In this document: in pieces, positions 1-54,823 of the stretch
Position numbering within the stretch: position 1 is the stretch's first letter
How the letters are laid out: each line of letters begins with the position of its first letter
Source: a virus
DNA length: 64,000 nt
Direction: 5' to 3' (one strand)
IMG/VR virus record: IMGVR_UViG_3300007511_000007
Coordinates: 48,372 to 112,371 of that record
Program-made: the position numbers and the translations under genes
Notes under the pieces: generated by a model
Told to the model about the DNA's origin: nothing
What the model saw: the letters and a program-made list of their open reading frames with translations, nothing else
The model's database searches: none

Positions 1-3000
1 GTTTCTTCTCGGCCTTTTGTTGTTTCTGCTTTTCGGCTACAACCTTTTCGCCCTCTTCAAGAGTAGTGAGGATTATGTCCATCGAATTCTTATCTTCGAG
101 CTTCCCAAGCAATCGCTCTGCCCTGAACTTTGCCTCTTCAAGAGCATCCTTCGCTTTCTCCGCATCCTCAATCGCAAAGGCACTTTCCAGATTACCAAGT
201 GCTTCCTCCAGGGCTGCTTTCTCCTCATCGGGGCCTTCTAATTCCGCAAGCTCCTTCTTTGCCCCGGAGACCCCTGCCTCTTCCTCTTTGGGTTCCTTCT
301 CGCTTTCACCCTGCTCATCGGCTTCATCACTTTTGTACTTCGCCTGTTCTTCAGGGCTGAGGCTGTTCCAGCCCACCTGTGTAACTTCACCGCCTTCGGT
401 TTGGTGATCAAACTTCTTGCCCACAGCCCATTCAGGAGTATCCCCGGCCATCATCAAATGCCAGAATGCCACTCTCCCCGGAGAGGGGATGTCCTCGGAA
501 ATGAGCCAACGAGATGCAATCCTCTTGTAGTTCAAGGACATGTCTTTGTCGTCACCACGATCTCCGTGGTCAACATCGGGATCATCCTCGGGTTTGACCT
601 GCTCCCGGCGAAGATCATTGCGAGGCGGCTTCTTCTTTGGTTCTGGCCGCACCAAACGTTCCGCTTCTTCGTCTTCCTTTTCCCCATGGTCTTTGGTGGC
701 TTGCTTGAACTTTTCCTCACACGACCCGCACACAGCGGGCATCTCAAGGACTTCTGCGTGTTCATGTACTCTTTGTGGACAACGGCATTGGTTTTTGTTT
801 CCGCAGATCGGGCACGTCAAACGCCAATGCTCAGGCTGCAGGATCTGCATAATCTGAGCTACAGTCTCCCCTCTCCGAACATGCAGGTCATACAAACGGT
901 CGCCCGAAGCACTCCGATAGAGCTTCAGTTTTGCTTCATAAAGGGCTGACTGGCGCACCCCTTGATCACAATCTTCCAGATAGCCTGCCGCAATCAACTC
1001 ATCCACAGCATCGTCATCCACCTGGTGACCCCGAAGAAAGTACCCTTTTGGAGTCTTCAGAATAGGCTGCTGGTGAATGTCCATGTCCTGCATAATGGCC
1101 TGTTCATATCCGGTTAGGCTGGATTGCAGTCCCAGATCTCCCCGGAGCACCCACTCATCCCCATCACCTTCTGGGCCATCGGTAGCATTGTTGATGTTGA
1201 TGATGGCAACCTTCTTTCCTTTCTGCACCGACCCGTCATGGACATAAGAATCTTCCAGCCCCGGCACCAGATAGTCGGAACGCAAGATCGAAGTTGTGTG
1301 CCCAACGATGTCTGCCACTTCCTCAAGGGCTTTCTTGAACTCTTCCTTGAGGATCTTGTCTTTTTCTTTCCTCGCATGGGGGAGGGCCGGGCCTTTCTTA
1401 CGAACTTTTCCCAGAGCCTTTCGCATCTCACGGTTAGCGTGGAAGCCTCGCATATCCTTGGCAGTGATCTCGTAAGGTTTGAGATACTCATTGATATCAG
1501 ATGCGCTCACGTCGGGGAGGACTTCTTCGTCATCTCCCTTCCCTTTGGCCGCTGCTTTCAAGGCAGAAATCAACTTTGAGTCCGTAACTTCCTTGGTGTG
1601 TTTGACCCCAGACTTGCCAGTATACTTCAGGACCGCCTTCCCTTCTTTAAAGGATATATGGCTGGCTTTCCATCCCGTAACCCCGTAGTGGCCTTTGTCT
1701 GCGGAGTCCTCATTCCCGACTCGCTCATAAGTCTCGTTGATGAGAGCAACCGCCATCGCAGTTTGTTTCTTCTTGTCGTCCTTGGCGTTGAGATCCTTCT
1801 CTACTTGCTTACGGAGCTTGGGGTATTCCTTCTCAAGCTGTTCGAGCTTCTTAGCCTTCTCCCGGTGCCGATGCTGAACTTGCCCATCTGTGTATTCATA
1901 GACGACCTGCTCATCGCCATCCTTGTTCTTGATCTTTTTCTTGTCTTTGTACTTGGCCGCAACCCGGATCGCCTGTGCTACCATTCTACCGGCTTCTTTG
2001 CTGATCCCCTCCCAGTAAGGGTCGACGGAATAATCAGAGGGCAGTTCACCCTCCTCCTTGAGCTTCTCGACTCCTCTCTCAACATAGATGTCTTGATAGT
2101 CCCGGTCATTTCGGATCACCCAAGTACAGAACTTCCACAAAGCGTCCAACTCTTCTCGTCTCGGGGGGCGAGCAATTTCAGGATGAGCCAAATAATGCTC
2201 AACGATGTCGTGAAGGGCTGGTTCAAGAATATCCGCTGGGCCGTCCCCGATCACATAACCTGCTTGATTACCTGGGTCCATCTGCAAAGTCTCAGGATGA
2301 ATTGCCCAATACCCGGCTTGCTTCGAGAAACGAATTGCTACCCTCTTCGAACTCCCCTCAACGCCCCGACGGGCCAGTTGGAAACGCTTCCCCAACTCCG
2401 GGTAGAAACTAAAAACTTCCTGCGGTACTTCTTTGCCCCCCATCAGAGCCTTTGCGATTTCCCTCTTGTGCCTTGACCGATAAAACGCCAAATCCATCTC
2501 TCGTTTAGCGTCAAGTTCCTTCTTTTCCTTGCGGTACCCCACTTCTTCAGCAAACTGTTTTTCTAGCCTCTGACGCATAAAGACCTTTTTTGCCAATCCC
2601 TTGAGAACCCCTTTCTCTCTCCTTGTTCGGTTCGGGGTCGCAAACAAAGTGCCCCCGAGAAACGTAGCGAACTCTGCCTCCGTCGCCATTTCTCTAGGGT
2701 TAATGCCCTGTTCTCTCACCCATGCATCAAAAGGCAGATCCGGGCGTCTGATCTCTCGGAGCAGTCCTGAGTCACGGATGAACTCAGGTAAGGACATCTG
2801 CCAAAACTCCTTTCGAGATGCCCCTACCCTTTTCTCCAAATGCTCGTGCATTTCAGCATTGTTACTCCCCCACCCATGCGCGAGGGGATTTGCTGGAGTC
2901 AATGAGATCTTCTCCAGCTTCGGAAGTCCCCACACCTCGATGTCCTCCACATCCCACGCCCCTGTGGGCAGCTTCCCCTTGAATTCGCTATCAACGCCCT

Positions 3001-5152
3001 CCAGATAGCCCAACGTCGTATGCGGGCGATAAATGTGCGGTGAGACATCTACAAGGTCAAAGCCTGCCTCCTGGTACGCCTCAGCAAGCCTCCAGCGTAA
3101 TTCGGAGATAGGTCTCTCAAACCGAATGTTCATATGCGGGATCGCCAAGTCTTTCTCAGCATTACGGAAATAATCGACCTGATGGAACTCGGCTTTGGTC
3201 GTCGGCGTACCCAACCCACCAGGGATGATGGTTTCGGCAATATCGAGGAATTCCTGTTCTCGCCCTTTCACATCCCCGACAATCAAGAAGGTGATATGCT
3301 CCGGGGAATCATCATTGGCCAGTTCAGGAAACTGCTTCCCGAGTTTTTCGGGAACTCGGATGAAGAATCCTGCCGATGTGGAATCCCCCGTGACGCTGCC
3401 GTCCCCACCGGCAGTCTTACGGCTTTTCTCTTCCCAATACTCTGGGGGGTTGGACCATTCGTTCGACTCTCCCAGCAATTGCTTTGCTCTCTGAGAGTAC
3501 CACCACAAAGTGGAGCTTGCAGAATCAATGAACTCTTCCACTGCTTTGGGCTTCGGTCCCGGTGGCTCATCTTTCAAACTGTATGGGACTCCAATATCAA
3601 ACCCACTGTTTTTGACCCCAATCCACGCACGCCTCAGTTCCTCCTTCTGCTCCTCAGGAAGTGCCATGACTTGCTGCATGGTCACATTGTAATGCTCACA
3701 AATGAGATCAACCCACGGATTTAGCTTTCTATCGGTGATATTTTTGATGCTCCGAAGGAGGTGGTCAACTTCCACGCCATCTATAGGTCGGCCTAATGCG
3801 TCCCGGTACTCCATGTCGATTCTGTCAATGAAGTCCCCGGCCATATCCAAGGGGCCATCCCCAGTCCAATGCCCCGCATCGGGAACCTCTGGAATTTTCT
3901 CTGGATTCAACTCCCACCATGAGGCAGTTTTCAGGAACCGGGTTGCTACCTTTTGAGCAGGCCCCCTACGCTTCGTGATTTCGTCCATGACCGCATCCGT
4001 TAGATCGGGTTTCTTTGCCAACTCGGGCTTCTCCAGCATCAACTCTCGGGCAATCTGGAATGGAATCTGTCGTTCCGGGCCTTCCAAATTATGAATCTCA
4101 AACACTAGCCGTTGATCCACAAGAGGGCGTTGCAGGAGCTTAAGGAAGTTGTCCGCTTCCTTCGGCTTCATGCCCAGAGTGATCTTACGCAACGTTTCTT
4201 GCTGCTCAGGGGACAAGAATGAGATTGGAGACCGAACCTGAATCCCCAATCCCGCAAGATCCAACAAGAGTCCGACCCCCTTATCATTCAGGTGTCCGGA
4301 AAGGTAGCTGGCAAACGCGTTGTTCTCCCGCACCATCTCAGCGATGACTTTGAGAAGCCCCAACTTCTGCATGAGCTTCAGAGAGTCTCGGGCGTTCTTT
4401 TCCCTGATAACATTCTCCACCATGAGCTTGCCGATTGCTTCCCAAGGAGCTTTCTTCATCTTGGGGGCATTGCGTTTGATAGCGGCAGCAATCTGGGGTG
4501 GAATCGTGAAACCGTACTTAGCAACAAACTTCACGGCACGCAATAAGCGAGTTGGATCATCAGAGAACGTTTTGTCTGGATCAGACGGGCAACGGAGTTC
4601 TCCTTTCTGAAGATCACGTAAGCCACATCCCGTGATATCCACGATCTCAGCTTTATCCGGCCCCTTAGCGATCTCAGCCAATTCCCACATCAAGGTATTG
4701 AGCGTAAATTCCCGCCTCAACACATCTTCTTTAATTGTCGCAGGTTCAACCGTATGGGGTTTGTACCCTTTCCCGCCCTGGCCTCCATATGACTCTTTTC
4801 GGGCATTGGCAATCTCAAGTACCTCACCCTTCATGTCATGGCCGTCCAGATCCCAATGATCCTTCACAGTAACGATAGCAACCCCGTAGTTGTTCGTGAC
4901 CACACTGGTTCTGACAGGGATCGCTTTGACCAACTGGTTCGCAAACCATGCGGAGTCTCTGCCCTTCAACGCAATTGTATCAATTACAACATCCACATCC
5001 TTGATTGGAGCTTTGAGGAGATGATTTCGAACAGCCCCACCCACGATGTAAATGTGTTTGTCTGCCCGAGATTTCTTTGCGACTGAGGCCAGAAACTTGG
5101 CGAGGATTATTGCTCGCTTGTTTCTTCCTCGAATAGCTGTTTTTGAAACCAC
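1..5152 (-). CDS. Giant multidomain polyprotein, >=1717 aa, runs off the left edge: class II CCA/poly(A)-type nucleotidyltransferase (~5152-3960), 2H phosphoesterase (~3400-2890), type IB topoisomerase catalytic domain (~1950-1230), Cys-rich Zn finger (~815-715), acidic/coiled-coil tail
   Basis: Hand translation: GTG at 5152 after GAGGTG, with an in-frame TGA just upstream and no stop down to position 1 (probably why the ORF track omits it). Motifs: YIVGGAVRN..KDVDVV, EDVLRREFTLN, FSDDPTRLLRAVKF; HITF (3298) and HTTL (3022); ERVGNE, GKSG, AKDMR, VGHTTSILRSDY (Tyr 1273); CPICG..CRC..CGSC. Confidence 0.92.
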   Translation of the reverse strand, partial: MVSKTAIRGRNKRAIILAKFLASVAKKSRADKHIYIVGGAVRNHLLKAPIKDVDVVIDTIALKGRDSAWFANQLVKAIPVRTSVVTNNYGVAIVTVKDHWDLDGHDMKGEVLEIANARKESYGGQGGKGYKPHTVEPATIKEDVLRREFTLNTLMWELAEIAKGPDKAEIVDITGCGLRDLQKGELRCPSDPDKTFSDDPTRLLRAVKFVAKYGFTIPPQIAAAIKRNAPKMKKAPWEAIGKLMVENVIREKNARDSLKLMQKLGLLKVIAEMVRENNAFASYLSGHLNDKGVGLLLDLAGLGIQVRSPISFLSPEQQETLRKITLGMKPKEADNFLKLLQRPLVDQRLVFEIHNLEGPERQIPFQIARELMLEKPELAKKPDLTDAVMDEITKRRGPAQKVATRFLKTASWWELNPEKIPEVPDAGHWTGDGPLDMAGDFIDRIDMEYRDALGRPIDGVEVDHLLRSIKNITDRKLNPWVDLICEHYNVTMQQVMALPEEQKEELRRAWIGVKNSGFDIGVPYSLKDEPPGPKPKAVEEFIDSASSTLWWYSQRAKQLLGESNEWSNPPEYWEEKSRKTAGGDGSVTGDSTSAGFFIRVPEKLGKQFPELANDDSPEHITFLIVGDVKGREQEFLDIAETIIPGGLGTPTTKAEFHQVDYFRNAEKDLAIPHMNIRFERPISELRWRLAEAYQEAGFDLVDVSPHIYRPHTTLGYLEGVDSEFKGKLPTGAWDVEDIEVWGLPKLEKISLTPANPLAHGWGSNNAEMHEHLEKRVGASRKEFWQMSLPEFIRDSGLLREIRRPDLPFDAWVREQGINPREMATEAEFATFLGGTLFATPNRTRREKGVLKGLAKKVFMRQRLEKQFAEEVGYRKEKKELDAKREMDLAFYRSRHKREIAKALMGGKEVPQEVFSFYPELGKRFQLARRGVEGSSKRVAIRFSKQAGYWAIHPETLQMDPGNQAGYVIGDGPADILEPALHDIVEHYLAHPEIARPPRREELDALWKFCTWVIRNDRDYQDIYVERGVEKLKEEGELPSDYSVDPYWEGISKEAGRMVAQAIRVAAKYKDKKKIKNKDGDEQVVYEYTDGQVQHRHREKAKKLEQLEKEYPKLRKQVEKDLNAKDDKKKQTAMAVALINETYERVGNEDSADKGHYGVTGWKASHISFKEGKAVLKYTGKSGVKHTKEVTDSKLISALKAAAKGKGDDEEVLPDVSASDINEYLKPYEITAKDMRGFHANREMRKALGKVRKKGPALPHARKEKDKILKEEFKKALEEVADIVGHTTSILRSDYLVPGLEDSYVHDGSVQKGKKVAIININNATDGPEGDGDEWVLRGDLGLQSSLTGYEQAIMQDMDIHQQPILKTPKGYFLRGHQVDDDAVDELIAAGYLEDCDQGVRQSALYEAKLKLYRSASGDRLYDLHVRRGETVAQIMQILQPEHWRLTCPICGNKNQCRCPQRVHEHAEVLEMPAVCGSCEEKFKQATKDHGEKEDEEAERLVRPEPKKKPPRNDLRREQVKPEDDPDVDHGDRGDDKDMSLNYKRIASRWLISEDIPSPGRVAFWHLMMAGDTPEWAVGKKFDHQTEGGEVTQVGWNSLSPEEQAKYKSDEADEQGESEKEPKEEEAGVSGAKKELAELEGPDEEKAALEEALGNLESAFAIEDAEKAKDALEEAKFRAERLLGKLEDKNSMDIILTTLEEGEKVVAEKQKQQKAEKK

Positions 5153-5167
5153 ACGTCACCTCTAGCA

Positions 5168-5198: not shown

Positions 5199-8100
5199 CT
5201 AGAAGCGACCGCCATCATCCTTCGGCGGCTCATACTCCAAACCCAATTTCTCAGCGATCTGCTTCACAATTTCCGTACCTTCCACAAGTTTCGCAGCAAC
5301 ATCGTTGTAGACGCCCCGCACCATCTCATTGAAGGTAGGATCGTTTACTGTCCACAGATCCCGCTCCACCTTCTCACGGGTTCTTTCAGGATCAATGTTC
5401 AGAAGCTCAAGAATAATCTCGATGTCCAGCGACCCTTTCTGGTACAGGTTGAAGAGATGGTCGAACGTGTCGGAGTTGTCCCTCAAAGCCAACCGGGTAA
5501 AGGACACAGAGGGGTAGATGACATTCTCGTCATCATACTCATCAGCCTCAATGAACCCCATACGGCGGCACATTGGTTTGAAAAGTTGCTCCTCAATGAA
5601 GTCTTGAAGGATCTCACGCAAGAGCATGTATCTGGTATTGATGACCTCAAGATTGATCCGGTCTCCCGAATAGCTGGATTCTCCTGAAAGAAGACTTTCT
5701 GTGACACCCAGACCCGAATACATCTGGCGATCTGTGCGGTCATAAAGGTTCGACCAATCCGGAACTCGTGTGTCAGACCCCATCTCCTCCCAATTAACCT
5801 GGAAGTTGGTGACGATTGAGAAATCGGGGTCTGCCAGAGCCATATCAACCTGATCCCGCAATTCCTCGATATCGTCCACATCCATACCCTCGGCCCAGAC
5901 AATTCTGATGGGAGTCATGTGACGAGAAGCTATCGACGTTTCCGCCTGCCTAATCTTGTCTCGAAAAACGAGTATTCTCATGCAGTTGTGTACCAAAACC
6001 TCATGTGTTACTAGAGATTCGTCGTCTTCTACATCGAAGGAATAAACGATGCCTTTGTAATGCACTGCCTGTGTTTCCTTGATTTTTCTCAACAGCTTCT
6101 TTGATCCGGACCAACCAGTGTCTTTGCCCGCCCGATTCACTGCGGAGAGCTTACCCTCCCCTTTCACTGTCTGCTCGGCCCACTTCTTGACATCCTCGGT
6201 GGAGCAACAAGAGAGACCCCAAAAGTCTTTCTTTCCGTATTGGTATGTCTTCTCTTGCCACCCGGCTGCTGTTTTCCACTTCCGGGACCAATTACGTGCT
6301 TGCCGACTCCTTTTTTTAATCTGTGTTTTGATCCCAACACGATTACAAAGAAGATGGATCTGATGAATCAACAAGCGGTTATCGAGTTGGATTTCAATTT
6401 GCGCTGCGTTCTCATCCCAATGCAACCAACCATCTGTATCCAGCAATCCCTTAAGGAATGCTAAGATCCGTTCCTCGCCCAAATTGAAGACCCATTCAGG
6501 GACACTTTTACCCGAAGCCCCATGTCCAAACTCTTCCATGAACCATCGGGCCAAAAGCATATCTCCGATTCTGATTTGTGTGGCCTCCAGGTCCGCTTCA
6601 CCCACCCCAAACAAGTTCCCTCTGTCCAAGCCCCCGAATTGACTTAAGACGCCTTCAACTTTTTGTTTGAGTTTCTCATCTCGTTCACCCTTCCCAAAAG
6701 TCCATGCCAGACTATGCGTGTTGAGTAGAGAATCTTTTTGTGTCCAGACACAACCATCCCCCAACCAGGTTCCAACCAGATACATAAAGTCATCTGATAT
6801 AGAGATCTTGGAAACAGGGGAACTCAAACTTTTCGTGACGACTGCTCCTGGGACACGGATTTCTTTTGCTATTGGATGCCAAAGAGTTCCGTTTCCCTTT
6901 CCTCGGCCTTTGAACACCTTTTCGGTCTGCAGGCCAATTTGATTCCGCAGCCGTGAGACACAGGCACGGAGACCTGCATAGGTATGTCCAGTGATCCCCC
7001 TAATGGCTTCATAAGAAGCCTCAGTCGGTTCTTCTAATCCCTTGAGCCAATTGATCAGACGGGTAGACTTCTTGACGGCTTCTATCCGCCCTGCGTCATC
7101 CTGCTCATATTCAAAAGAAACAACAAGCTCTCCCGCTCCTGATGTGTCTGCCTCTATAGCAGTGATTTTCCGCTCCCGTCTCTCAAACCCTTTCTGGTTC
7201 TCCCTGAAGCGTCTATCAACTTCAAGTTCTTTTCCCCGCCACCAGTCGGCCAAATCAATCTCAGTAATCGGATTGGACTCAGGAACCACTTGCGCTTCTT
7301 TAACCAAATCGCCTTCTTTGAACTCTTGTGCTTCAATCCACTCTTCTGTCTCATCTTCGTTGACCCGCAGGATGCGGTGATCGGAAGTTACTGCCAAAGG
7401 CCGTTCAATACCCGCCACAGAAAGAATAGTTATTTCCTCATCTACGGGGCGAGAGCCTTTCTGAGCTTTACGGAATCTACCTTTGTGGGTCAACAGAGAA
7501 TCCACTTCAACGTCCACGTCTTCTACAGGAATTTGCTGAATGATACCGTTTCGTTTGACTGTGACCAGAGTGCCGGGTAGTAAGCAACGTTCCAGTAAGG
7601 AAGAACCCCGTGGCTCATATTGGGACTTCTTTCTGCACATGTAGTAGACAAAACTACCCGCGTCCGGATCTGTGTTCAAAGGAATGTTTCGTCCTTGAAG
7701 AATTGCAGACGTGACATCCCCCGGCATCGAATTTACAACCCGAATTGCGTCTCTGTCTCCCATATTGGCTTTCTGGATCACGTCCTTGGTCTTCGAGTCG
7801 GCTACCAACTCAATGATCTTCTCGTCCGTGAACGGGAATGCCTCCATATGAATCTGCTCAGGGGGTAGCACTCTGAGCGCAGTCCATCCTTTGTAGTTCT
7901 TCTTGAGCCACCCAACCGCCCGTGCATTGGCGTCTTCACGCAATTGCCATCGTTCAATTGCTTTGCCGTCTGGGGTCAGTTCCCGAATCGCCTCTTCACG
8001 AATCTCTTTCGGCATCTCCGGATTATTGTCCTCACAGAAAATGAAAACTTCGCCCAGCAAATGGTAGTCGTGGACAATCTCAATCAGACGATGGAGAATC

Positions 8101-8498
8101 TCATTTTTCTTGCACCACCGCTCACAAAATTCGAGGGCTTTCTCCGCAAGCGTCCGGTTCTTGGCCTTGGGCATCCCCAAACGAAGTTTGGAGAGAGGCA
8201 GTTCCGTGTGGAGGTCAATCGCCTGCCCGACAAAACAATCAGTTTTGTACCAGAACCGGTAATAGTTCCGTTGCTCGTCAATGCTCTGTGGAAGTTCAAG
8301 GAAGTCCGTGGATAACTCAGGAGAATAAAAGTTCCCCCCGGAACCCCCAACGGTACCACCTACCGTTGGGTAAGCCACCTTTGAGCGCATCGCAGAAGAC
8401 ATGATCTTGCGGGGTTTCCCCGTGGACACTTTGGGTCTCGGGGGGATCTTCTTTACCTCTACGGCAGTGTCATTCTGTGCCCGTTCTTCTTTGGTCAT
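5199..8498 (-). CDS. Portal protein interrupted by an intein (spliced product about 565 aa)
   Basis: Lies near terL; portal-like segments (FVGQAIDLHTELPLS, YEPRGSSLLER/CMRILVFRDK, SGESSYSG..NLEV); clear intein termini. Confidence 0.8.
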   Translation of the reverse strand: MTKEERAQNDTAVEVKKIPPRPKVSTGKPRKIMSSAMRSKVAYPTVGGTVGGSGGNFYSPELSTDFLELPQSIDEQRNYYRFWYKTDCFVGQAIDLHTELPLSKLRLGMPKAKNRTLAEKALEFCERWCKKNEILHRLIEIVHDYHLLGEVFIFCEDNNPEMPKEIREEAIRELTPDGKAIERWQLREDANARAVGWLKKNYKGWTALRVLPPEQIHMEAFPFTDEKIIELVADSKTKDVIQKANMGDRDAIRVVNSMPGDVTSAILQGRNIPLNTDPDAGSFVYYMCRKKSQYEPRGSSLLERCLLPGTLVTVKRNGIIQQIPVEDVDVEVDSLLTHKGRFRKAQKGSRPVDEEITILSVAGIERPLAVTSDHRILRVNEDETEEWIEAQEFKEGDLVKEAQVVPESNPITEIDLADWWRGKELEVDRRFRENQKGFERRERKITAIEADTSGAGELVVSFEYEQDDAGRIEAVKKSTRLINWLKGLEEPTEASYEAIRGITGHTYAGLRACVSRLRNQIGLQTEKVFKGRGKGNGTLWHPIAKEIRVPGAVVTKSLSSPVSKISISDDFMYLVGTWLGDGCVWTQKDSLLNTHSLAWTFGKGERDEKLKQKVEGVLSQFGGLDRGNLFGVGEADLEATQIRIGDMLLARWFMEEFGHGASGKSVPEWVFNLGEERILAFLKGLLDTDGWLHWDENAAQIEIQLDNRLLIHQIHLLCNRVGIKTQIKKRSRQARNWSRKWKTAAGWQEKTYQYGKKDFWGLSCCSTEDVKKWAEQTVKGEGKLSAVNRAGKDTGWSGSKKLLRKIKETQAVHYKGIVYSFDVEDDESLVTHEVLVHNCMRILVFRDKIRQAETSIASRHMTPIRIVWAEGMDVDDIEELRDQVDMALADPDFSIVTNFQVNWEEMGSDTRVPDWSNLYDRTDRQMYSGLGVTESLLSGESSYSGDRINLEVINTRYMLLREILQDFIEEQLFKPMCRRMGFIEADEYDDENVIYPSVSFTRLALRDNSDTFDHLFNLYQKGSLDIEIILELLNIDPERTREKVERDLWTVNDPTFNEMVRGVYNDVAAKLVEGTEIVKQIAEKLGLEYEPPKDDGGRF
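5985..7586 (-). mobile_element. Intein with LAGLIDADG homing endonuclease in the portal gene (534 aa)
   Basis: Begins CLLPGTLV, has a TSDH block B, ends VLVHN followed by Cys+1; LAGLIDADG-like LVGTWLGDG and LKGLLDTDG. Confidence 0.92.
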
Positions 8499-8802: not shown

Positions 8803-9047
8803 GTCACATCCTTCTTCGACACTATACCTGTGGAGATCGCCGCCTTCACAGTCTTCCGCAAAAGAGACATCTCATCCGTAGATCCCAGAAAGAGTTTCTC
8901 CCACGATCCCCCGGCTTTTTGGAACACTTCAGAGATCTTGTTGTATTCCTCAGCCTTGTCCAGAAATTTGCCGGGACTCACATCCAACAGCCGGGCGATC
9001 ATTCGATGATCAGCACGGGTTGGTTTTATCGCCGTGAGCGTGACCAT
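8799..9047 (-). CDS. Hypothetical protein
   Basis: ATG at 9047 preceded by GGAGGGGG; operon context. Confidence 0.65.
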   Translation of the reverse strand: MVTLTAIKPTRADHRMIARLLDVSPGKFLDKAEEYNKISEVFQKAGGSWEKLFLGSTDEMSLLRKTVKAAISTGIVSKKDVT

Positions 9048-10903
9048 GCCCCCCTCCACGCTGATCTAGCCCTTTGAACGTCTACTCTTCGAGAATCATG
9101 GCTCCCGGTACGATGCAGCCGTTTGAAGTTCGAGCTTCTTGTGCCTGCTCGACGAGCCATTCCCTGTCCCTTTCCGGTACCTTTGGACATGTACTTGGGT
9201 TGGGTGATTCTCTGTGTAGCCAACCAGATCATCCTCACCAGAGCGTCTGAACGGTCGTCGTGTTTCCCTTCAATGTTCGGAGCCTGAACCTTGGTGATGT
9301 GTTTGGAAACCCGTTCTTCCTGCAACTCTAACAACTCGGTGACATACCCACAGTGCGTTTCGCCATCGGCAATAGGCCAATCGTAGAGGACAACTCTACG
9401 ATCCCACATCATGTCTTTGAAGGTCTTGAAGATTTCTGAGTTGATAATTGGCGTCAGTTGTTTGGTCTTCATCCCTTTGACACCACGTTTCATCAACGCC
9501 TGCTCAAAGGGGATTCCGGCCCACTGGTCAAACAATCCCTCTGCAACATAGAAGCGGGACGCATGTGCTTTGACCCAATCCGCAACCTCATCGAACTCCA
9601 GGCGATCCTGTTGAGCGTATTTGCCTTCCCCGGCTTTGATCTGATCCACAAGGTCAACCACCACAACCGGCCCCATCTCGGGGTCTTGCTCGATATGCCC
9701 AATTGCGATTGCTGAACCGTCTCCTTTCAACCCAACGTCAATCCCCACGAAATGAGGTACCTTGGTGGGGCCTGATGTCTGGGGTCTGCGATCAGGGTCG
9801 ATACATGCGATCAAGTCCCGCTCGTCCTCGATCCAACCCTTGGTTCGGTCGGTAAACTCGGCTCCGTATTCGGTGAAGAACTCGGTGGGGTCTTTGAGAT
9901 ACTGCTTCATGTACTCAGCTTTGGGAACCGTGGGGTTAATTTCCCAAGTTGGTGCCTGAATACACAGCATGTCTTCCGCTACCTCACCACCCCGCATCGC
10001 CATCTGGAACTGCTTGTAGAACAACCCCTGCCGCCCCATTGGGGATGAAATCAGGATCATGCGAGCTTCAACGTTCCCAATGGGGACTCTGGGATCGTCA
10101 GGGTCTTTAGGGGAGAACGCTGACAGAGAAGGCTTGATAGCTCCATAGACGGCATCCGCACTGGACTGCCCCGATTCTACAAAGTGGGCAACCTCATCCA
10201 AGATGACAACCAGGTTACCTGCACCTCGAAGCCCCTTGGCAACACAAGACTTGAACGTCACATTGATACTGGCCTTGGCCGCAGGGTCTTCGCTGTATCT
10301 CCCAAACCGATTAATGTCCTTTGGGGTCTGGAACTTCGCATAGGACATTGTGTTGTTGGCCGTGAACGTTTTGAAGAAACCACATTGACGGAAGTGGTTC
10401 GACACCCCCTGATAGAGCAACCCCGCCTGATCCTTGTCCGTCGCTACAGACGTGATTTGGATCATATCCGAACCCGGGAGTCCGTAATATGCCTGCGGGT
10501 CTCCCTTGCTCAAGAGCTTGTACGTTTCGTAGGCTGCAATACAGGCAGAAATCAGAGTCTTCCCTGACCGTCTTCCCAATGACAAAACCATTTCCCGACG
10601 TTCATCCCCGGCGACTACTTGCCGGATATTACATCGGCCTTCATCATACATGTGACGAAGGTAAGCTGCCTCCGTCATCATCTCGATATCTTCCAGCCTC
10701 CAATCGTCGGGGACCGGGACTATCTTCTCTTTCGTGTCGAGAGGCACCCCATAGTGAGCCTTCAGAATGACTCTTTGAGCGGGGAACAACTTGAAATTCA
10801 GCCCCCACCCGGATTCAATGAAAGTGATAATGTCGACAATCTTTCGCCCTTGATCAGGGTTAATCCCACCACCAGCATGTTTGACCAGGTCACCAAGACT
10901 CAT
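9026..10903 (-). CDS. terL: Terminase large subunit
   Basis: Walker A LGRRSGKT, Walker B VVILDEVAH, motif III LISSP, nuclease GIDVG and HDDRSD; ATG 10903 overlaps the upstream stop (ATGA). Confidence 0.93.
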   Translation of the reverse strand: MSLGDLVKHAGGGINPDQGRKIVDIITFIESGWGLNFKLFPAQRVILKAHYGVPLDTKEKIVPVPDDWRLEDIEMMTEAAYLRHMYDEGRCNIRQVVAGDERREMVLSLGRRSGKTLISACIAAYETYKLLSKGDPQAYYGLPGSDMIQITSVATDKDQAGLLYQGVSNHFRQCGFFKTFTANNTMSYAKFQTPKDINRFGRYSEDPAAKASINVTFKSCVAKGLRGAGNLVVILDEVAHFVESGQSSADAVYGAIKPSLSAFSPKDPDDPRVPIGNVEARMILISSPMGRQGLFYKQFQMAMRGGEVAEDMLCIQAPTWEINPTVPKAEYMKQYLKDPTEFFTEYGAEFTDRTKGWIEDERDLIACIDPDRRPQTSGPTKVPHFVGIDVGLKGDGSAIAIGHIEQDPEMGPVVVVDLVDQIKAGEGKYAQQDRLEFDEVADWVKAHASRFYVAEGLFDQWAGIPFEQALMKRGVKGMKTKQLTPIINSEIFKTFKDMMWDRRVVLYDWPIADGETHCGYVTELLELQEERVSKHITKVQAPNIEGKHDDRSDALVRMIWLATQRITQPKYMSKGTGKGQGMARRAGTRSSNFKRLHRTGSHDSRRVDVQRARSAWRGAWSRSRR

Positions 10904-11598
10904 GAGGGTACCCCCCGGATGGTATTCTTGATTTTGTTCTTGGCCTCTTGTTCCCAATGGGCATCCATCTTCTTGGAGAGGTTATCGAACACAAGATCAA
11001 CCATCTCCGAAGGCAATCCGGATTCTCGCATAGCGTATTGGAACGTCTGCATGATATGGGAAAAGAGTGTCTTGAAAGCGGGGCTGTCGAACTCCAGGGT
11101 TGACGAATCGATCTCTTTCTTCTTCTTGAGCCACGTTTCCCCAATCGTGCGCAGAGCTTTCAGCCGACGGCTAGAAAACCCCGAAGTGCTGTCCCCCTCT
11201 CTTTCGGCCACACTCTTGTCATAGTCCAGGGACGCCGCCTCCTTAGCCATCTCCTTGAGGATGTGGTCAAGAATGTCGGTCGAGTCAGGATTCTTCCCCA
11301 TGGCTGTTACGATTGGATCATTCACGACGACGGATTCTCGTTGTCGCACCCATTCTGCCACTTCCGGATTTTTGGGGTCGGGCAAAGACACTTTCGGTTT
11401 ACCGACACCCCCCTTACGGCCGGGGAGATTCTTCATCACGATGGGTTCACCGGATTTCTTGGTCACTATCGTATCGGTTGTCTTTACCTCATCTCGATTC
11501 CGCCACCGAAGATTGCCGTCTTTATCCGTTACTTTTACTCGGAGAGCGTCCTTGGGGAGTTTGGCCGCAATCGCTTTCGCGTTTTGTTTACCCGACAT
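10900..11598 (-). CDS. Putative terminase small subunit
   Basis: Directly upstream of and translationally coupled to terL; basic N-terminus and helical C-terminus; positional inference only. Confidence 0.5.
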   Translation of the reverse strand: MSGKQNAKAIAAKLPKDALRVKVTDKDGNLRWRNRDEVKTTDTIVTKKSGEPIVMKNLPGRKGGVGKPKVSLPDPKNPEVAEWVRQRESVVVNDPIVTAMGKNPDSTDILDHILKEMAKEAASLDYDKSVAEREGDSTSGFSSRRLKALRTIGETWLKKKKEIDSSTLEFDSPAFKTLFSHIMQTFQYAMRESGLPSEMVDLVFDNLSKKMDAHWEQEAKNKIKNTIRGVPS

Positions 11599-13136: not shown

Positions 13137-15595
13137 ATCTCGAAGCCCCCACCAAAGAAGATGTCCCCGATGTCTCCGAAGTCAGGATCATCACTCAATT
13201 TGATATTATCCGTAGCAGAACCGAGATCGAACTCAGCGGGGTCATGTGCTGGGGCGAAAAGGCTCGCCGTCATCTCAGCATCACCTGCTCCTGCGGCTTT
13301 GATGTTGGCCTGTTTCACTTTCTCGATTGCCGCCCCGTCCCCGCTCTCTGCTGCTATCAATGTCTTGTTGTACTTCTGACAAACTTGGGCTTCAATGGGC
13401 TGGTCGTCTGCCCCGGTGATCAATTTGGCATTGGCGAACTTGCAGGCATGGCAACGCTCCATCTCCAGAAGCATCGGGATACCATTGACCCGATGTTTTG
13501 ACGCCCCTTTGTCACAACCCTTGGTGCCTGTCTTGCTCGCATACACATGCGGGTCAACATAAAGGAATCCAGCAGCCCCCTCATGCGCCTTCCGCAGGGT
13601 GCTGATGGCCTCTTGTGCGGCCAAACGGACATCGCTGGTAAGGCGCATCTTGATGAGGTCATCCAGATCCTTCCCAGCGGAACCCTCATTCATAGCTTTG
13701 GCTACCCACAGCAATGACGCTCGCAATTTCTTCGGCTGTGCGTTGATCCATTCCGACACTTCCTGTACGGAAGCGGTTTTCTTGGCAGCTACTTGCTTGC
13801 GCTGAGGCACTGCAGCCTCAAACCTGTGTCCTTTGTAGTCTTCTGTCTGAGCCGCATTTTTCAGACTGGCCACTACCTGCCGCCCCAGCTTGAGTGCTTC
13901 ATCCACTACCGCTGCGGGGGAACGTCCCCCTTCTTTGTACAGTTGTTTCCGCAATTCAGGGGTGATCATCACACCATTGGATTCAATGGACTCTGTGAGA
14001 AGGCGTTTTACAGCTTGAGATTGTTTGTGGTACCAGTCGAGAAACTCAGAGTTCTGCTTGATTGCAGCCCCCTTGGGACTCCGATAGGCATTCGCCTTGT
14101 AATTGCCCCCGACATATTCCTTCGTCTCCGTAGCCTGAACCCCTTTCTTCCTTACCGCCGTCAAAGCCAGCACCATCGCTTCCCGAGGGGACTTACCCAA
14201 GGAAAAGATGCGATTGACTTCAGTGGCCGAAAGCACCCCGGCTGAGACATATTTCTTTTCGAGGTATTCACGAGCTTGTTTGTTCTGTGCCGCCCACATC
14301 TCCTGAGTCTCCATTGCGGTCTTGGACTCAGCCCGGGACAAGAGTTCCCATGCATTGCGGGTTTCCCGTTCGTCCGGGGCAGCAGCAATAAACGAGACCC
14401 CGATTCCATCATACTCTTTGCTGGGTGCCGTCGCCGCAACAAGTTTGGTCGCCGCTTTGAGGACATCAGCAGGGGGAGCCGTGGATTGGAACAGACGTTT
14501 GGCGGCTTCCTGGCTCAAAAGCCCGGCCCGCATCTTCTGTGCAATCCAGCCATGCGCTTTCTTACGCTGACCTTTGATGACCCTTTGCCCGACACTCACT
14601 TGCTGGCGAGGCTCGGGAGTTGCCGCTGCGAATTGCTTCTGAGCTTCCTCAGAAGTCACGGTATCAACAGCCTTCACCTCAACCGGCTTGAAACTGTCCT
14701 TTGCTGCCGACTCACCCGGGCCAGCGAGAAATGCTTTTTTCAAAATCTCAGGCGGGGCCAGATCCCCGTCTTCGGTGAGCACATAACCCAAAGACTGGAG
14801 CTTGGGGCCGTAGTGGGCCATCGCTTCGTCCCACGGCATCACTACCACAGCTTCCTTGCCCACGACCCCCCCGACGGGGCTTCCTTCTTCCGCAATGATG
14901 TACTTGGCACTCCCGCACTTCTTACGGATTATTTCCTTCCATTTCCCATTCTTCAGCCCGGGAAAAGCTGCTGCTCGAATGAAGACCTTACCTGCCAGCC
15001 CGTGCTCATTCACGAGCCTCCTCATTGTTTGGGCGATCCTGGGGAAGTCGGGGCCAAGTTCCTCGCGGGCTTCTTTGATGATCTCCGCAATCGGGTACCC
15101 ATAAGCTGATTTCCGCATCGCCCGCTGGACGACTCGAAGCAGATCTTCCGTACTAGCCTTCTTCGCCGTGGGTGTCGAGGCGTGGCTTTCCTTGTAGGGC
15201 AAACGTTGGTTGACCCCATCTGTTCTATGCTCAACGCCCCATGCTTGCTCCAACTCTTCAATCCCTTTGTCCACGGGGTTTACCGGAAGTCGATCTGGAT
15301 CTTGCTCACCATGCAACCAGCCCAGCCCGGCAAGGCTGCCCTCTTTCATCAGTTGATCCAAATCCCCGATCTGATGGCTCGCAGACTGACTGTCTACATC
15401 CCCTTCGGGAACGGCATCTACAACCAGACCGTCAGGAAGATCTGCCAACCCGTGTACTTCAGGCAGTCTCGCATTGTCCAGGACGCCGCTTCCATACTCC
15501 GTGTCGAATTGAAATCCGTCCAGACCGTAATTGTACCCATCGGTCATGGTGAAATCATCAGACGGCATGTTGGATTTCGATTTCTTATCAGTCAT
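13133..15595 (-). CDS. Large hypothetical protein (820 aa) with acidic termini and a Cys cluster; possible head/scaffold protein
   Basis: Long ORF with GCDKG..RCHACKF..VCQKY; contains KKA and KKTA sites. Confidence 0.75.
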   Translation of the reverse strand: MTDKKSKSNMPSDDFTMTDGYNYGLDGFQFDTEYGSGVLDNARLPEVHGLADLPDGLVVDAVPEGDVDSQSASHQIGDLDQLMKEGSLAGLGWLHGEQDPDRLPVNPVDKGIEELEQAWGVEHRTDGVNQRLPYKESHASTPTAKKASTEDLLRVVQRAMRKSAYGYPIAEIIKEAREELGPDFPRIAQTMRRLVNEHGLAGKVFIRAAAFPGLKNGKWKEIIRKKCGSAKYIIAEEGSPVGGVVGKEAVVVMPWDEAMAHYGPKLQSLGYVLTEDGDLAPPEILKKAFLAGPGESAAKDSFKPVEVKAVDTVTSEEAQKQFAAATPEPRQQVSVGQRVIKGQRKKAHGWIAQKMRAGLLSQEAAKRLFQSTAPPADVLKAATKLVAATAPSKEYDGIGVSFIAAAPDERETRNAWELLSRAESKTAMETQEMWAAQNKQAREYLEKKYVSAGVLSATEVNRIFSLGKSPREAMVLALTAVRKKGVQATETKEYVGGNYKANAYRSPKGAAIKQNSEFLDWYHKQSQAVKRLLTESIESNGVMITPELRKQLYKEGGRSPAAVVDEALKLGRQVVASLKNAAQTEDYKGHRFEAAVPQRKQVAAKKTASVQEVSEWINAQPKKLRASLLWVAKAMNEGSAGKDLDDLIKMRLTSDVRLAAQEAISTLRKAHEGAAGFLYVDPHVYASKTGTKGCDKGASKHRVNGIPMLLEMERCHACKFANAKLITGADDQPIEAQVCQKYNKTLIAAESGDGAAIEKVKQANIKAAGAGDAEMTASLFAPAHDPAEFDLGSATDNIKLSDDPDFGDIGDIFFGGGFEI

Positions 15596-40237: not shown

Positions 40238-43200
40238 TCAGTTCTCTGGTTTTGGCGGGACTATTTCACAAGAATCGTTGGTGCAGAACTTCTCGGTCAC
40301 CTCATGCACAGAATCGGACAGGTCAAGAGGCTTCAAGGCCGCTACCATCTCGTTGTAGGTCTCCTCATCGATCTCAATGTATGGTGCCTGCTCATACCCA
40401 TGGTCTTCAAGAGGCAATAGAGAAACTCCTTTGAGTTTTGTCTCGTAAGTCTCCAGGCATCTCTGAATGTCCTCGACCTCATGCGCCTGGAAAGTAACCG
40501 TAGCACTGACCTGATTGTCGGCCCACTCCCGTTGCAAATCCGAGACATTGGCGAATTGTTCCCAAATAGAAACATCCCTCTTTGCTCTGTCAAAGTTCTG
40601 CTCTCGGACCGGGAAACTGATTACAACTGTATCCGGAGCGTAAGTGTCTTCCTCTACGGTGTATTGCGCATCTCTGCAAGCCTGCACCAGTGGCGATGTG
40701 TCCTGCACCCTCACATTACGGATGTAGAATTCTGAGTGCGGGTAGTGTTGCCCCGGTGTTGCCCCAACCAACAATGAGATCGTTCCGGAAGGTTTCACTG
40801 TCGCCATTTTGATCGAACGAGGAATACAAAGCCATTCTGAATACACCTTATCCAAGGTAGCCATGTACCGGTATCCATCGTCGCACCAGCGAAGGTACTG
40901 ATAACGCCCCAACTTCTTCAGTGCCTGAGTAATCCCCGATTGAGAACACCCGATCCTACGATTCCTCATGGCGACCGCATTGGTACGGGGGTCATGGGTC
41001 GGGATCAGAGTTACCGTTTTTGCATAGAGATAGGCGAACTTCAGGGTTCTCTGGTAATCCTCGAAGGTGTCATGGTGAGCCGGGAAGGTCTCAACCAAAT
41101 TACACGCCTCCCTATCTTCGAGGGGGATCTCGCCACATTGGAATGTGGCAATCCCTGAAAAAGACCGTTCCGTTATGGAAGTGGCAACACACACAGTGTG
41201 GTTGTTGTCCACAGTGATGTTGTAAACGTCCTCCAGAGTTTCAACTTCTCTGACATATTTAACCCGATGATTGTACCCCTGCGCCAAACTCTCGAATTCC
41301 CGATACCCTGCCATGACATGCGGGTTTGGGGAATCCTTCTGAAACCTGACAGACACACTTCTATCCCGACAAAGACTCTCCCACTCCTTCTTAGCGGGGT
41401 TCCTGCCAAGCTGCTCTTGCAAATCTTTGTAAGCCATCATTTGCCTGTGGAGAGTCTGCCGCTGTCTATTATCAAACGCTCCCCGAACCCCCAGTTTTCT
41501 CTTCTCTGACTGAGCCAGCCTCTGCTGACTGCACGAGGTAGAACAGAAGCCCCTTTCACGCTTACCCCACGGCACTATAAAGTCCTCTGCACACATCTCA
41601 CATACCCGCACCGCATACAGACGCCCTTCTACCCACACCGTGTCTAGATCAGTAATTCTCCCTTGCCCCTCATAATAGCTTCTAAGCTCTCCCTTTCTTT
41701 GAGAAGCCATTCGTTCCGAAGATGCCTCTCTAATCTCTGGAGACTGCCCTTCAGACAATCTCTTTCGATACTCACTAGATCGACATCGCTCTTTCGCTTT
41801 CAAGCTTATCTTCTTTCGAGTCTCTGCTGATTGTGTGCGACCCCACATCGGGTTATCTTCACCTGATTGCCCAGCTAAACGGGCATGGTACGCCTGGTGT
41901 TCTTTAAAGCTCATGATCTGGAGATTGTCAGGGGAATTGTTAAACCTATTGAAATCCTTGTGATGGACAACTAAGCCGCCCGCCAGCCACCCGGACCTTT
42001 TAGCTTCATCATACATCTCAACCCACTCCACAGGAGAGTGGAACTTGGCAATCATCCTATGCTCAAAGATTTTCTTCTTAGTAACTCCTCTAGTGTCCAC
42101 ATGCACCCTGTAATATTCCGACCCTGGATCACCTGCTCGAATCCGTTCCTTCGCCTTAAAGAATCTCGGAAGGCTGTCTCCAACTTTTAGGTCTTGGGCT
42201 GACACGCTCGCCCCATTCAGCAACAGCATCTCATGCTCAGGAGTTACTCGTAAGGAGCCTCCCCCCACTAGACCGATCTCCACAAGTTTTGCGTTCTCCT
42301 GTGTCTTCCGAGGGTGCCTCCCCCATTGTATCTCCACCAAGCCCGTCTGCGGGTTTACCGAATAAACAGGAACATCCCGGCCTTCCTTGGCTAACTCCCG
42401 CAAAGACACCGCCCCTCTTCCGTCTGCCACAGCAATCAGAGTGTCCCCTGTAAAACAAGGATTGCTCCCCATCACTCTTCGGTCTCGGAAATTTGGTTTG
42501 TTCCGAATACGAGCAAACTTCTGCATGTTATCTAACCAGATGATTCCGGGTTCCCCGTTTTGGGCAATCCGCCGGGACACATCCGCATAATTCATTCCAA
42601 CCTGCCCAAAGATCGAGTTGTTACTGGCCCACCTCCGGTCAGTTAATGCCTCCTGATCCAATTTGAGATCCAAGAACTCGGCATCTTCAGGATCACCAAA
42701 CATGATCTCGGACGTTCGCCTGACACCCCCGGCCACCACTGCCTTCCCAATATAGTTGAAGATATCCACGATCTGGCTCGAACTAATGCGGTGGCTTTCT
42801 CCATCTGGAGGTGTGAGCAGCTTCGTCAAAGAGGATACCAGATCTTCAAGAGGCTTTGAGCCACTCGAAATTCCCCCGAAAGTCTTTAATGGACTCCCCT
42901 TTGGCCGCAATTGGGAGTAATCGATCTCCTTCGGATAGAAGCCTCGACCAATGAATGAATTGAGAAGCGTCTTGATCAAATCAACCCAACCCTCTCTGGT
43001 ATCTTCCACCACAAAAGGCTTTGTCGTAAAGCGAGGAGGCTGTATCCTTATTTTCCCAGCACCACGAGTATCCCCACCAACCCCAACCCCCAACATGGAC
43101 ATATCCATGAGCCAGCAGAATGGCCCCGCAAAATCCACTTCGATGTTCTCGGTCGAACAGAAAGCGCAGTTGAACAAGATTGCCGCTCCCTTCTTTTTCA

Positions 43201-43564: not shown

Positions 43565-43711
43565 TGATATCCTGCTTCCCAATAAAGAACCTTCACGAAT
43601 TCGGATGCCGTTTACATTTGGTAACAACCCCCTCTAAGACAGTTCCACCGAACCGCCCCACCCGACTGCCTCTTTCTCTAGCCAGCCCCCAGGCGCACAA
43701 GGAGGTGTAGT

Positions 43712-54813: not shown

Positions 54814-54823
54814 GTCCAACCTT

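Follow-up and report, generated by a model that had tools for sequence, protein, structure and literature searches.

A 2047-residue candidate polyvalent protein encoded beside the portal gene of an uncultured huge phage joins three unrelated enzymes and a recurrent helical motif

Results

A long gene directly behind the portal gene

The stretch of DNA analysed here, 64,000 nucleotides referred to throughout as the window, is C1:48372-112371 of a 112,371-bp IMG/VR virus record (IMGVR_UViG_3300007511_000007). As this 112-kb record has a CheckV completeness of 21%, we estimate the genome at about 500 kb, and it is probably in any case several hundred kb long. Our subject is a minus-strand gene that enters the window at position 1 and encodes a protein of 2047 residues, in which a nucleotidyltransferase, a 2H phosphoesterase and a topoisomerase IB are joined with modules of no named family. 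A short motif, R-V-A-x-R-[YWF]-(L), recurs in the protein and is called the tag below. The module map was based on Pfam, PHROGs, NCBIfam and PDB sequence searches, on two AlphaFold2 models covering residues 860-2047 and 380-960, and on fold searches. Model confidence is given as the predicted local distance difference test (pLDDT).

Features of the long gene, an open reading frame (ORF), in window coordinates
2..5152, minus strand: in-window part of the ORF, residues 1-1717 of 2047 (ORF listing and parent record)
5159..5162, minus strand: GAGG, Shine-Dalgarno-like site 6 nt upstream of the GTG start (read directly)
3959..5152, minus strand: module 1, class-II CCA/poly(A)-type nucleotidyltransferase, residues 1-398 (Pfam, PHROGs, PDB, motifs)
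3923..3955, minus strand: tag 1, extended form R-F-x-K-x-A then WW, residues 400-410 (helix, moderate to low pLDDT)
3461..3922, minus strand: M2, helical, no named family, residues 411-564 (AlphaFold2, pLDDT 56-80)
3404..3460, minus strand: disordered linker holding SRKTA, residues 565-583 (pLDDT below 50)
2873..3403, minus strand: module 3, 2H phosphoesterase of LigT/CPDase type, residues 584-760 (AlphaFold2, fold, HxT motifs)
2354..2872, minus strand: M4, helical with one long helix, no named family, residues 761-933 (relatives, AlphaFold2)
2315..2347, minus strand: tag 2, extended form then YW, residues 936-946 (segment comparison)
1988..2314, minus strand: M5, low-confidence helical, residues 947-1055 (AlphaFold2, segment comparison)
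1949..1969, minus strand: tag 3, IRVAAKY, residues 1062-1068, immediately ahead of the topoisomerase fold (topoisomerase IB alignment)
1220..1948, minus strand: module 6, topoisomerase IB, residues 1069-1311 (Pfam, alignment, Foldseek, VIA)
866..1159, minus strand: M7, compact alpha/beta domain, no named family, residues 1332-1429 (pLDDT about 90)
719..814, minus strand: Cys cluster CPIC..CRCP..CGSC, putative zinc ribbon, residues 1447-1478 (motif reading)
527..709, minus strand: M9, charged, with an invariant P..PPR.D, residues 1482-1542 (alignments of relatives)
503..526, minus strand: tag 4, KRIASRWL, closing M9, residues 1543-1550 (consensus in relatives NYKRVAxRWL)
Residues 1571-1613, same strand: small beta-hairpin unit (AlphaFold2 model)
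2..271, minus strand: start (residues 1628-1717) of an all-helical C-terminal domain spanning residues 1628-2040 (pLDDT 86-97)

An earlier note on this DNA, made from its letters and a list of ORFs, had predicted an uninterrupted minus-strand frame of at least 1717 residues from the GTG at 5152. The frame is indeed there: it encodes 1717 residues and is open at its 3′ end at the window edge, and in the parent record it continues for 991 nt past window position 1 to a stop codon at genome 47380-47382, which gives the full 2047 residues. It was also said to be absent from the ORF track, which is true of the default list but merely reflects that open-ended frames are unlisted there by default. 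The GTG start lies 46 nt beyond the portal stop codon. The Logan contigs that span the ORF come from four marine metagenome runs in two studies and have zero insertions or deletions. Possibly two of these runs are the source samples themselves, so that only the other two are independent. Substitutions, the sole differences, are confined to a micro-diverse patch at window 2184-2822 (modules M4-M5), within which the contig graphs of several runs break. In one run, X1, a contig of a minor variant departs from the sequence at window 2308, only 7 nt away from tag 2, and may stem from a co-occurring strain whose upstream module differs; a contig of X1 also has one loose end, at window 3764. The gene is real and intact.

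Three unrelated enzymes on one chain

The earlier note read the frame as one long gene uniting unrelated enzymes, and both the full ORF and its domain matches agree: three disparate activities lie on a single chain, with the catalytic residues intact in all of them. At the N-terminus, the PolyA_pol head domain (PF01743) was matched over residues 34-187 at E 5.8e-15, above the Pfam cut-off, and the module matched phrog_2244 (E 1.9e-31) and tRNA nucleotidyltransferases in the PDB (E 1.6e-17). Its motifs GGAVRN (residue 38), DVD (residues 52-54) and EDVLRRE (residue 142) are intact, and its RNA-binding domain reached 21.3 bits against a Pfam cut-off of 22. No equivalog-level match that would tell a CCA-adding enzyme from an A-adding enzyme or poly(A) polymerase was found among the NCBIfam CCA and PcnB models, which scored far below their cut-offs (TIGR02692, 93.7 against 438.8 bits).

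The 2H module carries two HxT motifs, HITF at residue 619 and HTTL at residue 711, and was modelled with a pLDDT of about 96. Pfam gave no match for it in this protein; homologs carry PF02834/PF13563. Its fold is that of a cyclic-phosphodiesterase-type enzyme (CPDase), with VIA Z 15.0 to the Deinococcus radiodurans CPDase 5h7f (root-mean-square deviation (rmsd) 3.1, 157 residues aligned), 14.3 to 2d4g (YjcG) and 13.1 to 1vgj; viral 2'-5'-oligoadenylate phosphodiesterases and phage Acb1 matched less well. The topoisomerase matched the Pfam family Topoisom_I over residues 1093-1289 (E 3.3e-27). Its pentad, R1145, K1180, R1235, H1285 and Y1294, aligns to the corresponding residues of the variola enzyme and is invariant across 29-50 relatives. 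Residues 1059-1319 gave VIA Z 23.8 to variola topoisomerase (rmsd 3.8, 251 residues aligned) and Z 22.4 to D. radiodurans TopIB, and Foldseek gave E 4e-10 for the module. While Pfam, motifs and fold thus uphold the three enzymes that the earlier note had named, the zinc finger it added fared less well: the Cys cluster is present, with a Pfam match at E 0.82 only, and is modelled poorly (pLDDT below 50).

The remaining modules carry no family name. M2 is found also in relatives P0003 and P0006, and M4 is common to P0005, P0006 and L069; the start of M5 repeats that of M2, and in relative P0020 M7 is positioned ahead of the topoisomerase. M9 is the most conserved segment of the family. Fold searches returned nothing beyond generic helical matches for the C-terminal domain, M2 and M4, and M7 had no match; as multi-domain models were used, these results are uninformative on fold novelty. 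The ESM Atlas held no usable match for residues 771-1058 and gave sub-threshold leads only for residues 1313-1485, the M7 region.

A helical tag at module borders and protein ends

All the linker strings that the earlier note had quoted were found where it placed them, and not all of them turned out to be separate motifs. SRKTA (residues 577-581, 3424-3410) is part of a disordered linker, inside which the similarity of homologs to the 2H module begins (high-scoring segment pairs (HSPs) from query positions 574-585). FKQA (residue 1482, 709-698) and SKEA either end the extended tag form R[FYW]xKxA or lie next to it. What recurs is R-V-A-x-R-[YWF]-(L), a predicted amphipathic helix. Most module junctions have it: it precedes M2, M5 and the topoisomerase and closes M9, and the 2H and M7 junctions are without it. 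Tags 1 and 2, each with about 35 following residues, form an internal repeat (E 5e-9 in a direct segment comparison), which self-BLAST at default settings did not show. In both AlphaFold2 models the tags are short low-confidence helices amid disordered stretches, unpacked against the enzyme domains. The topoisomerase tag abuts its fold without a spacer and, by structure alignment, replaces the first ~55 residues of the usual TopIB N-terminal domain.

Across the family the pattern [KR][IV]A..[FWY] occurred 92 times in 39 proteins, against 7.8 +/- 2.7 in shuffles (12x). The consensus over 185 distinct contexts is small-small-x-R-V-A-[AS]-R-[YWF]-L-x-[KRA]-[KA], with acidic, poorly ordered flanks upstream and basic ones downstream. 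In 105 family proteins, the share of internal HSP ends lying within 25 residues of a tag was 22.2% (6.1% expected), with a peak between -10 and +10, counts that are not independent since the proteins are related. Similarity of our protein to its relatives has edges at query positions ~400, 578-585, 937-943, 1059-1063 and 1482-1485. The order of modules is permuted, the 2H module standing ahead of the nucleotidyltransferase in many relatives, and where the region is split its genes begin or end at a tag. Module shuffling at the linkers, which the earlier note had proposed to look for in homologs, is thus seen in boundaries, permutations and gene splits alike, and all three coincide with the motif. 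The tag is also enriched at protein ends (23 in the first 30 residues against 4.2 expected, 9 in the last 30 against 3.5). Stand-alone topoisomerases of about 350 residues carry it at residues 11-14, and nearly all topoisomerase modules have kept it at about 50% overall identity. Codons differ among its copies, and therefore selection acts on the peptide; DNA microhomology was rejected as a cause of the motif on the same grounds.

A position-specific scoring matrix (PSSM) trained on the relatives only found five further tags among the remaining proteins of the phage (0.6 in shuffles), and at a stricter threshold three against 0.1. Carriers recognized by a looser regular expression include d191, a 191-residue protein encoded two genes after the long gene, and the products of five neighbouring genes elsewhere in the window, with domain types typical of polyvalent proteins:

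51100-61279, minus strand: tag carriers, namely a SNF2 helicase (1239 residues), an 862-residue unknown protein, a C39-type peptidase (521 residues), a DUF4240 protein and a DUF2958 protein

The tag forms the C-terminal end of the C39-type peptidase. In d191 an extended form, RVAxAFVKKALYW, is conserved in most of 50 aligned orthologs, and its resemblance to the starts of M2 and M5 extends over just 17 residues. No copy was found in the portal, terminase or protease of this phage. We had considered M2 and M5 as homologous domains of d191 and rejected this, the similarity being limited to the 17-residue tag (E ~0.01). As a separate observation, the gene run at 51100-61279 has the appearance of a polyvalent protein that was divided among several genes.

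A conserved core with exchangeable modules

In the protein database, 38 full-length relatives were found, 1140-3129 residues long and encoded on contigs of up to 438 kb. Modules swapped into them include PAP2, NUDIX, ART-PolyVal (P0003, P0006), DUF5661 (P0005, P0006), superoxide dismutase and inteins. Scanning IMG/VR with an alignment of the topoisomerase module revealed at least 168 loci in huge phages, on contigs of up to 536 kb; the alignment was needed, as a scan with a single-protein query found no locus. Contexts were taken from the best 80 of the 168 loci. Most of the 80 show the order TerL, portal, a variable polyvalent region, d455 (a 455-residue protein), d191, protease, d476, d221, and a few have the topoisomerase match alone. 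The variable region ranges from a single 3098-residue ORF to as many as eleven listed ORFs of at least 60 residues. In one subclade (L016, L017, L064, L078-L080) a stand-alone topoisomerase IB of about 350 residues is encoded between TerL and portal, and the post-portal gene begins directly with M9.

A HMMER search with residues 1483-2047 yielded 351 clusters at E<=1e-3. Among the 144 matches listed, 133 have P..PPR.D, in 56 cases within the first 60 residues and in 77 internally, behind added modules. Since M9 is N-terminal in the former and preceded by modules in the latter, we regard M9 and the C-terminal part as the conserved core and the enzymes as add-ons. In some relatives (L059-L061, around 14054-14443; P0025, P0037) the polyvalent protein is extended at its C-terminus by a fused d455, which retains its conserved KVAxDFAYRCDLLSD helix.

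Two other peptides recur in the variable region. Small ORFs standing between portal and topoisomerase in several IMG/VR loci (L005 9142-9480, L031 7885-8433, L058 7830-8465) have in common an N-terminal LRSxLIRLAHxxPELRxHLLPIL, and another recurrent small ORF bears LLPIMHPLYNLREVCKQ; both peptides may be further portable elements.

Neighbouring genes

The minus-strand order at the locus is TerL, portal, the long gene, d455, d191, prohead protease, d476 and d221 (221 residues).

9026-10957 (window), minus strand: large terminase
5199..8498 (window), minus strand: portal, 1099 residues, with a LAGLIDADG intein (phrog_16240, E 2e-23; LAGLIDADG_3, Intein_splicing)
Between the long gene and the prohead protease gene: d455 (455 residues) and d191 (191 residues)
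L002 6678-9362, minus strand: prohead protease, 894 residues, intein-bearing
L002 5213-6643, genome 41213-42643, minus strand: d476, 476 residues, with a clear calcium-binding EF-hand loop at residues 230-248

The earlier note had placed the long gene directly after the portal gene, and the portal match confirms this; intein-free portal orthologs have about 565 residues. An intein-free ortholog of the protease matched phrog_18299, 'head maturation protease' (E 2e-13), while PDB sequence searches with the protease and with this ortholog gave nothing relevant. With the portal gene upstream and the prohead protease gene downstream, the long gene lies inside the head-morphogenesis module.

Three essential genes of the phage, those for portal, prohead protease and ribonucleotide reductase (window 40238-43627, minus strand), are interrupted by inteins with homing-endonuclease domains, and in many relatives the orthologs are free of the inserts. 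The d476 gene occupies the position of a scaffolding protein after the protease, and its product is conserved at the N- and C-terminal ends and variable in the middle. Just downstream of the head-module genes, an 896-residue ORF (L002 592-3282, genome 36592-39282, minus strand) combines a LAGLIDADG endonuclease, a partial N6/N4 DNA methylase and a C-terminal CGNR zinc finger.

Discussion

A candidate cargo protein of the phage head

On balance, and with rather more confidence than doubt, we read the 2047-residue protein as a phage polyvalent protein, a cargo loaded into the head in which unrelated enzymes are carried as tagged modules on a conserved core. M9 and the C-terminal helical domain form the conserved core, which alone makes up the post-portal gene of the simplest relatives. 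The enzyme modules (CCA-type nucleotidyltransferase, 2H phosphoesterase, topoisomerase IB and the unnamed ones) have been added N-terminally to it, and the long protein would have arisen through fusion of tagged cargo genes. The amphipathic helix would serve as a portable docking or addressing tag, and the protein would be loaded into the prohead beside the portal, then released into the cell along with the DNA, a path demonstrated for DarB of phage P1 and for the internal proteins of T4. There, to judge by the enzyme families, the topoisomerase could relax the incoming genome, and the nucleotidyltransferase and 2H phosphoesterase could either mend RNA, at tRNA 3′ ends or at cyclic-phosphate ends, or degrade signals made of 2'-5' or cyclic nucleotides.

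We prefer a docking or addressing role for the tag because it would explain together the module junctions, the position of the tag at either end of stand-alone modules, the unrelated carriers and the conservation in d191. Capsid-targeting signals such as those of T4 IPIII and P1 DarB are short, usually terminal peptides common to cargo proteins, and the tag likewise is enriched at termini and sits on unrelated proteins.

Several points weigh against a cargo role. Pfam at E<=1 found none of the hallmark polyvalent domains (MuF, ART-PolyVal, LPD, zincin-like metallopeptidase) in the protein, M2, M4, M5 and M7 not having been searched as separate models, and in fold searches the C-terminal core showed no recognisable kinship by which it could be linked to a known virion protein. 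Topoisomerases, CCA-adding enzymes and 2H enzymes are also ordinary intracellular enzymes of phages (PMC7824862). No receptor for the tag was identified, and in the AlphaFold2 model tag 4 is undocked on the helical domain of its own chain. The enrichment statistics are inflated by kinship among the family members. Finally, the sole relative in GenBank is LR745208.1, the unannotated record of an uncultured 485-kb phage; the family has no cultured member and hence no virion proteome.

Alternative explanations

The best-surviving alternative, which we nevertheless find doubtful, is that the protein is a polyprotein precursor, cut in the prohead by the prohead protease or by the tagged C39 peptidase at or beside R-V-A-x-R-[YWF] / K-x-A junctions, so that separate enzymes are injected. 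The prohead protease gene lies three genes downstream, the junction motifs coincide with module borders and are flanked by disordered segments, and some tags terminate in K-x-A with a small residue behind it. Precedents exist as well: head proteins of giant phages and of T4 are trimmed at short motifs, with propeptides that serve targeting (PMC10052503), and polyvalent proteins have been argued to require processing into units (Iyer et al., PMC5512222). However, the K-x-A tail is found in a minority of tags only, no constant P1-like residue stands near the tag in its 185 distinct contexts, and the core motif is predicted as a helix rather than an extended site. The topoisomerase tag leaves no spacer before the fold, tags at the very end of stand-alone proteins leave nothing to release, and portal, TerL and protease are without a copy. 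The 'explicit processing linkers' of the earlier note are therefore not borne out: the motif is a predicted amphipathic helix with no fixed P1 residue, present at protein termini and inside d191. The occurrence at extreme termini of stand-alone proteins and inside d191 is also why we favour addressing or docking over a cut site. Cleavage at the tags may occur, but nothing in the sequences requires it.

A multi-enzyme scaffold that stays unpackaged in the cell, serving DNA topology and RNA repair, with the helix recruiting tagged proteins to a hub such as a replication or transcription factory, is in our view improbable. In jumbo phages each of the three enzymes has an ordinary role inside the cell (PMC7824862), the tagged SNF2 helicase and other nucleic-acid enzymes are encoded far from the head genes, and the lack of an identified receptor for the tag leaves room for such a hub. 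Against it, most of the 80 loci, which come from diverged phages, have the gene or its split pieces adjoining the portal gene and ahead of that for the prohead protease, the core is fused in some relatives to the product of a head-module gene, d455, and relatives contain ART-PolyVal, which was described from polyvalent proteins that are injected (PMC5512222). That the motif has no function of its own and is a favoured linker helix or a recombination scar spread by module shuffling is very improbable: it does mark recombination borders, the minor strain variant does diverge 7 nt from tag 2, and tags 1 and 2 are part of an internal duplication, but with codons that differ from copy to copy there is no microhomology in the DNA on which recombination could act, most d191 orthologs and nearly all topoisomerase modules (the latter at about 50% overall identity) have kept the peptide, and it occurs on proteins other than the shuffled modules. 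Both an unpackaged role and an inert linker thus appear less likely than a cargo loaded into the head.

Implications

A bolder form of the proposal, which we advance tentatively and to which we give less than even credence, is that R-V-A-x-R-[YWF]-(L) is the cargo-addressing peptide of a clade of uncultured huge phages, loading into the capsid any protein that bears it at an end or a junction, and that the 2047-residue protein is a concatenated, freely re-assortable cargo train anchored beside the portal by the M9 core. If so, this would be the first sequence-defined capsid-targeting code common to many cargo proteins and many phages, and these phages would inject a topoisomerase IB together with an RNA-end repair kit, as poxviruses carry a topoisomerase. 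An addressing signal of this kind would offer a sequence rule for predicting the injected arsenal of the whole clade from genomes, and a ready handle for loading foreign proteins into large capsids. A topoisomerase IB and RNA repair enzymes borne by the virion would point to early steps of counter-defence and genome handling undescribed for phages. Huge phages are known almost solely from metagenomes, and we know of no account of the cargo inside their capsids. The family is widespread, with at least 168 IMG/VR loci and 351 core clusters, and its clade is found in marine and other habitats. Polyvalent proteins as a kind of capsid cargo are already known; in the literature searched we found no description of a huge-phage family with topoisomerase IB, CCA-type transferase and 2H phosphoesterase in the head module, none of the M9 core or of a consensus junction or terminal tag, and no paper with the string RVAARY.

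Comparison with known systems

The concept of polyvalent proteins comes from Iyer, Burroughs, Anand, de Souza and Aravind (2017; PMC5512222). Our protein resembles them in its very long chain with several unrelated enzymes, in its place among late or virion genes and in its mosaic content between relatives, and 2H phosphoesterases and Pol-beta-superfamily nucleotidyltransferases are among the domains they list (PMC5512222). The resemblance to the polyvalent proteins of mobile elements seen in the earlier note is therefore well founded, the more so as close relatives carry ART-PolyVal. It differs from them in that topoisomerase IB was not found among the domains in that text (PMC5512222), in that Pfam detected no MuF, LPD, ART or metallopeptidase domain in it, and in its tag, since text searches found no consensus junction or terminal peptide common to separate proteins.

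The jumbo phages PaBG, Motura, phiRSL1 and phage G encode the same enzyme families, which have been read as DNA-topology and tRNA-repair functions (PMC7824862). There, topoisomerase I and CCA-adding enzymes are products of separate genes, not known in the head module, and neither fusion nor tag has been reported. As the topoisomerase is not mentioned among the virion proteins in PaBG virion proteomics, it gives no precedent either way.

Among topoisomerases, the best structural matches are the poxvirus enzymes (variola, vaccinia; 2h7f, 1a41) and D. radiodurans TopIB (2f4q/3m4a), with the full R-K-R-H-Y pentad. Sequence identity to the poxvirus and bacterial enzymes is about 20%, and here the enzyme is fused into a 2047-residue chain. 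The poxvirus topoisomerase IB is itself carried in virions.

In T4 and in phiKZ-like phages such as SPN3US, short N-terminal peptides direct internal and ejection proteins, respectively, to the prohead core, and these proteins are then trimmed by the prohead protease and ejected with the DNA (PMC10052503, PMC3012670). The cleavage motifs in those phages are 3-4 residues long and end in Glu, and the targeting peptides are N-terminal only, whereas the present tag is an amphipathic helix of 7-11 residues that may be internal, N-terminal or C-terminal and is accompanied by no Glu-type site.

The closest tested analogue is DarB of phage P1, a giant multi-domain enzyme in the head that is thought to enter the cell with the DNA (PMC9024508). 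DarB has 251 kDa, its gene adjoins those for portal and prohead protease, and it is packaged via its N-terminal 30 residues, which suffice for capsid targeting (PMC9024508). DarB is a methyltransferase-helicase, and our protein is known from sequence alone. A search of the Dar proteins of P1 for a consensus targeting sequence was negative (PMC9024508), whereas here one motif is present on many proteins. The position of the long gene in the genome is that in which P1 and phages of the SPP1/Mu type encode their packaged proteins.

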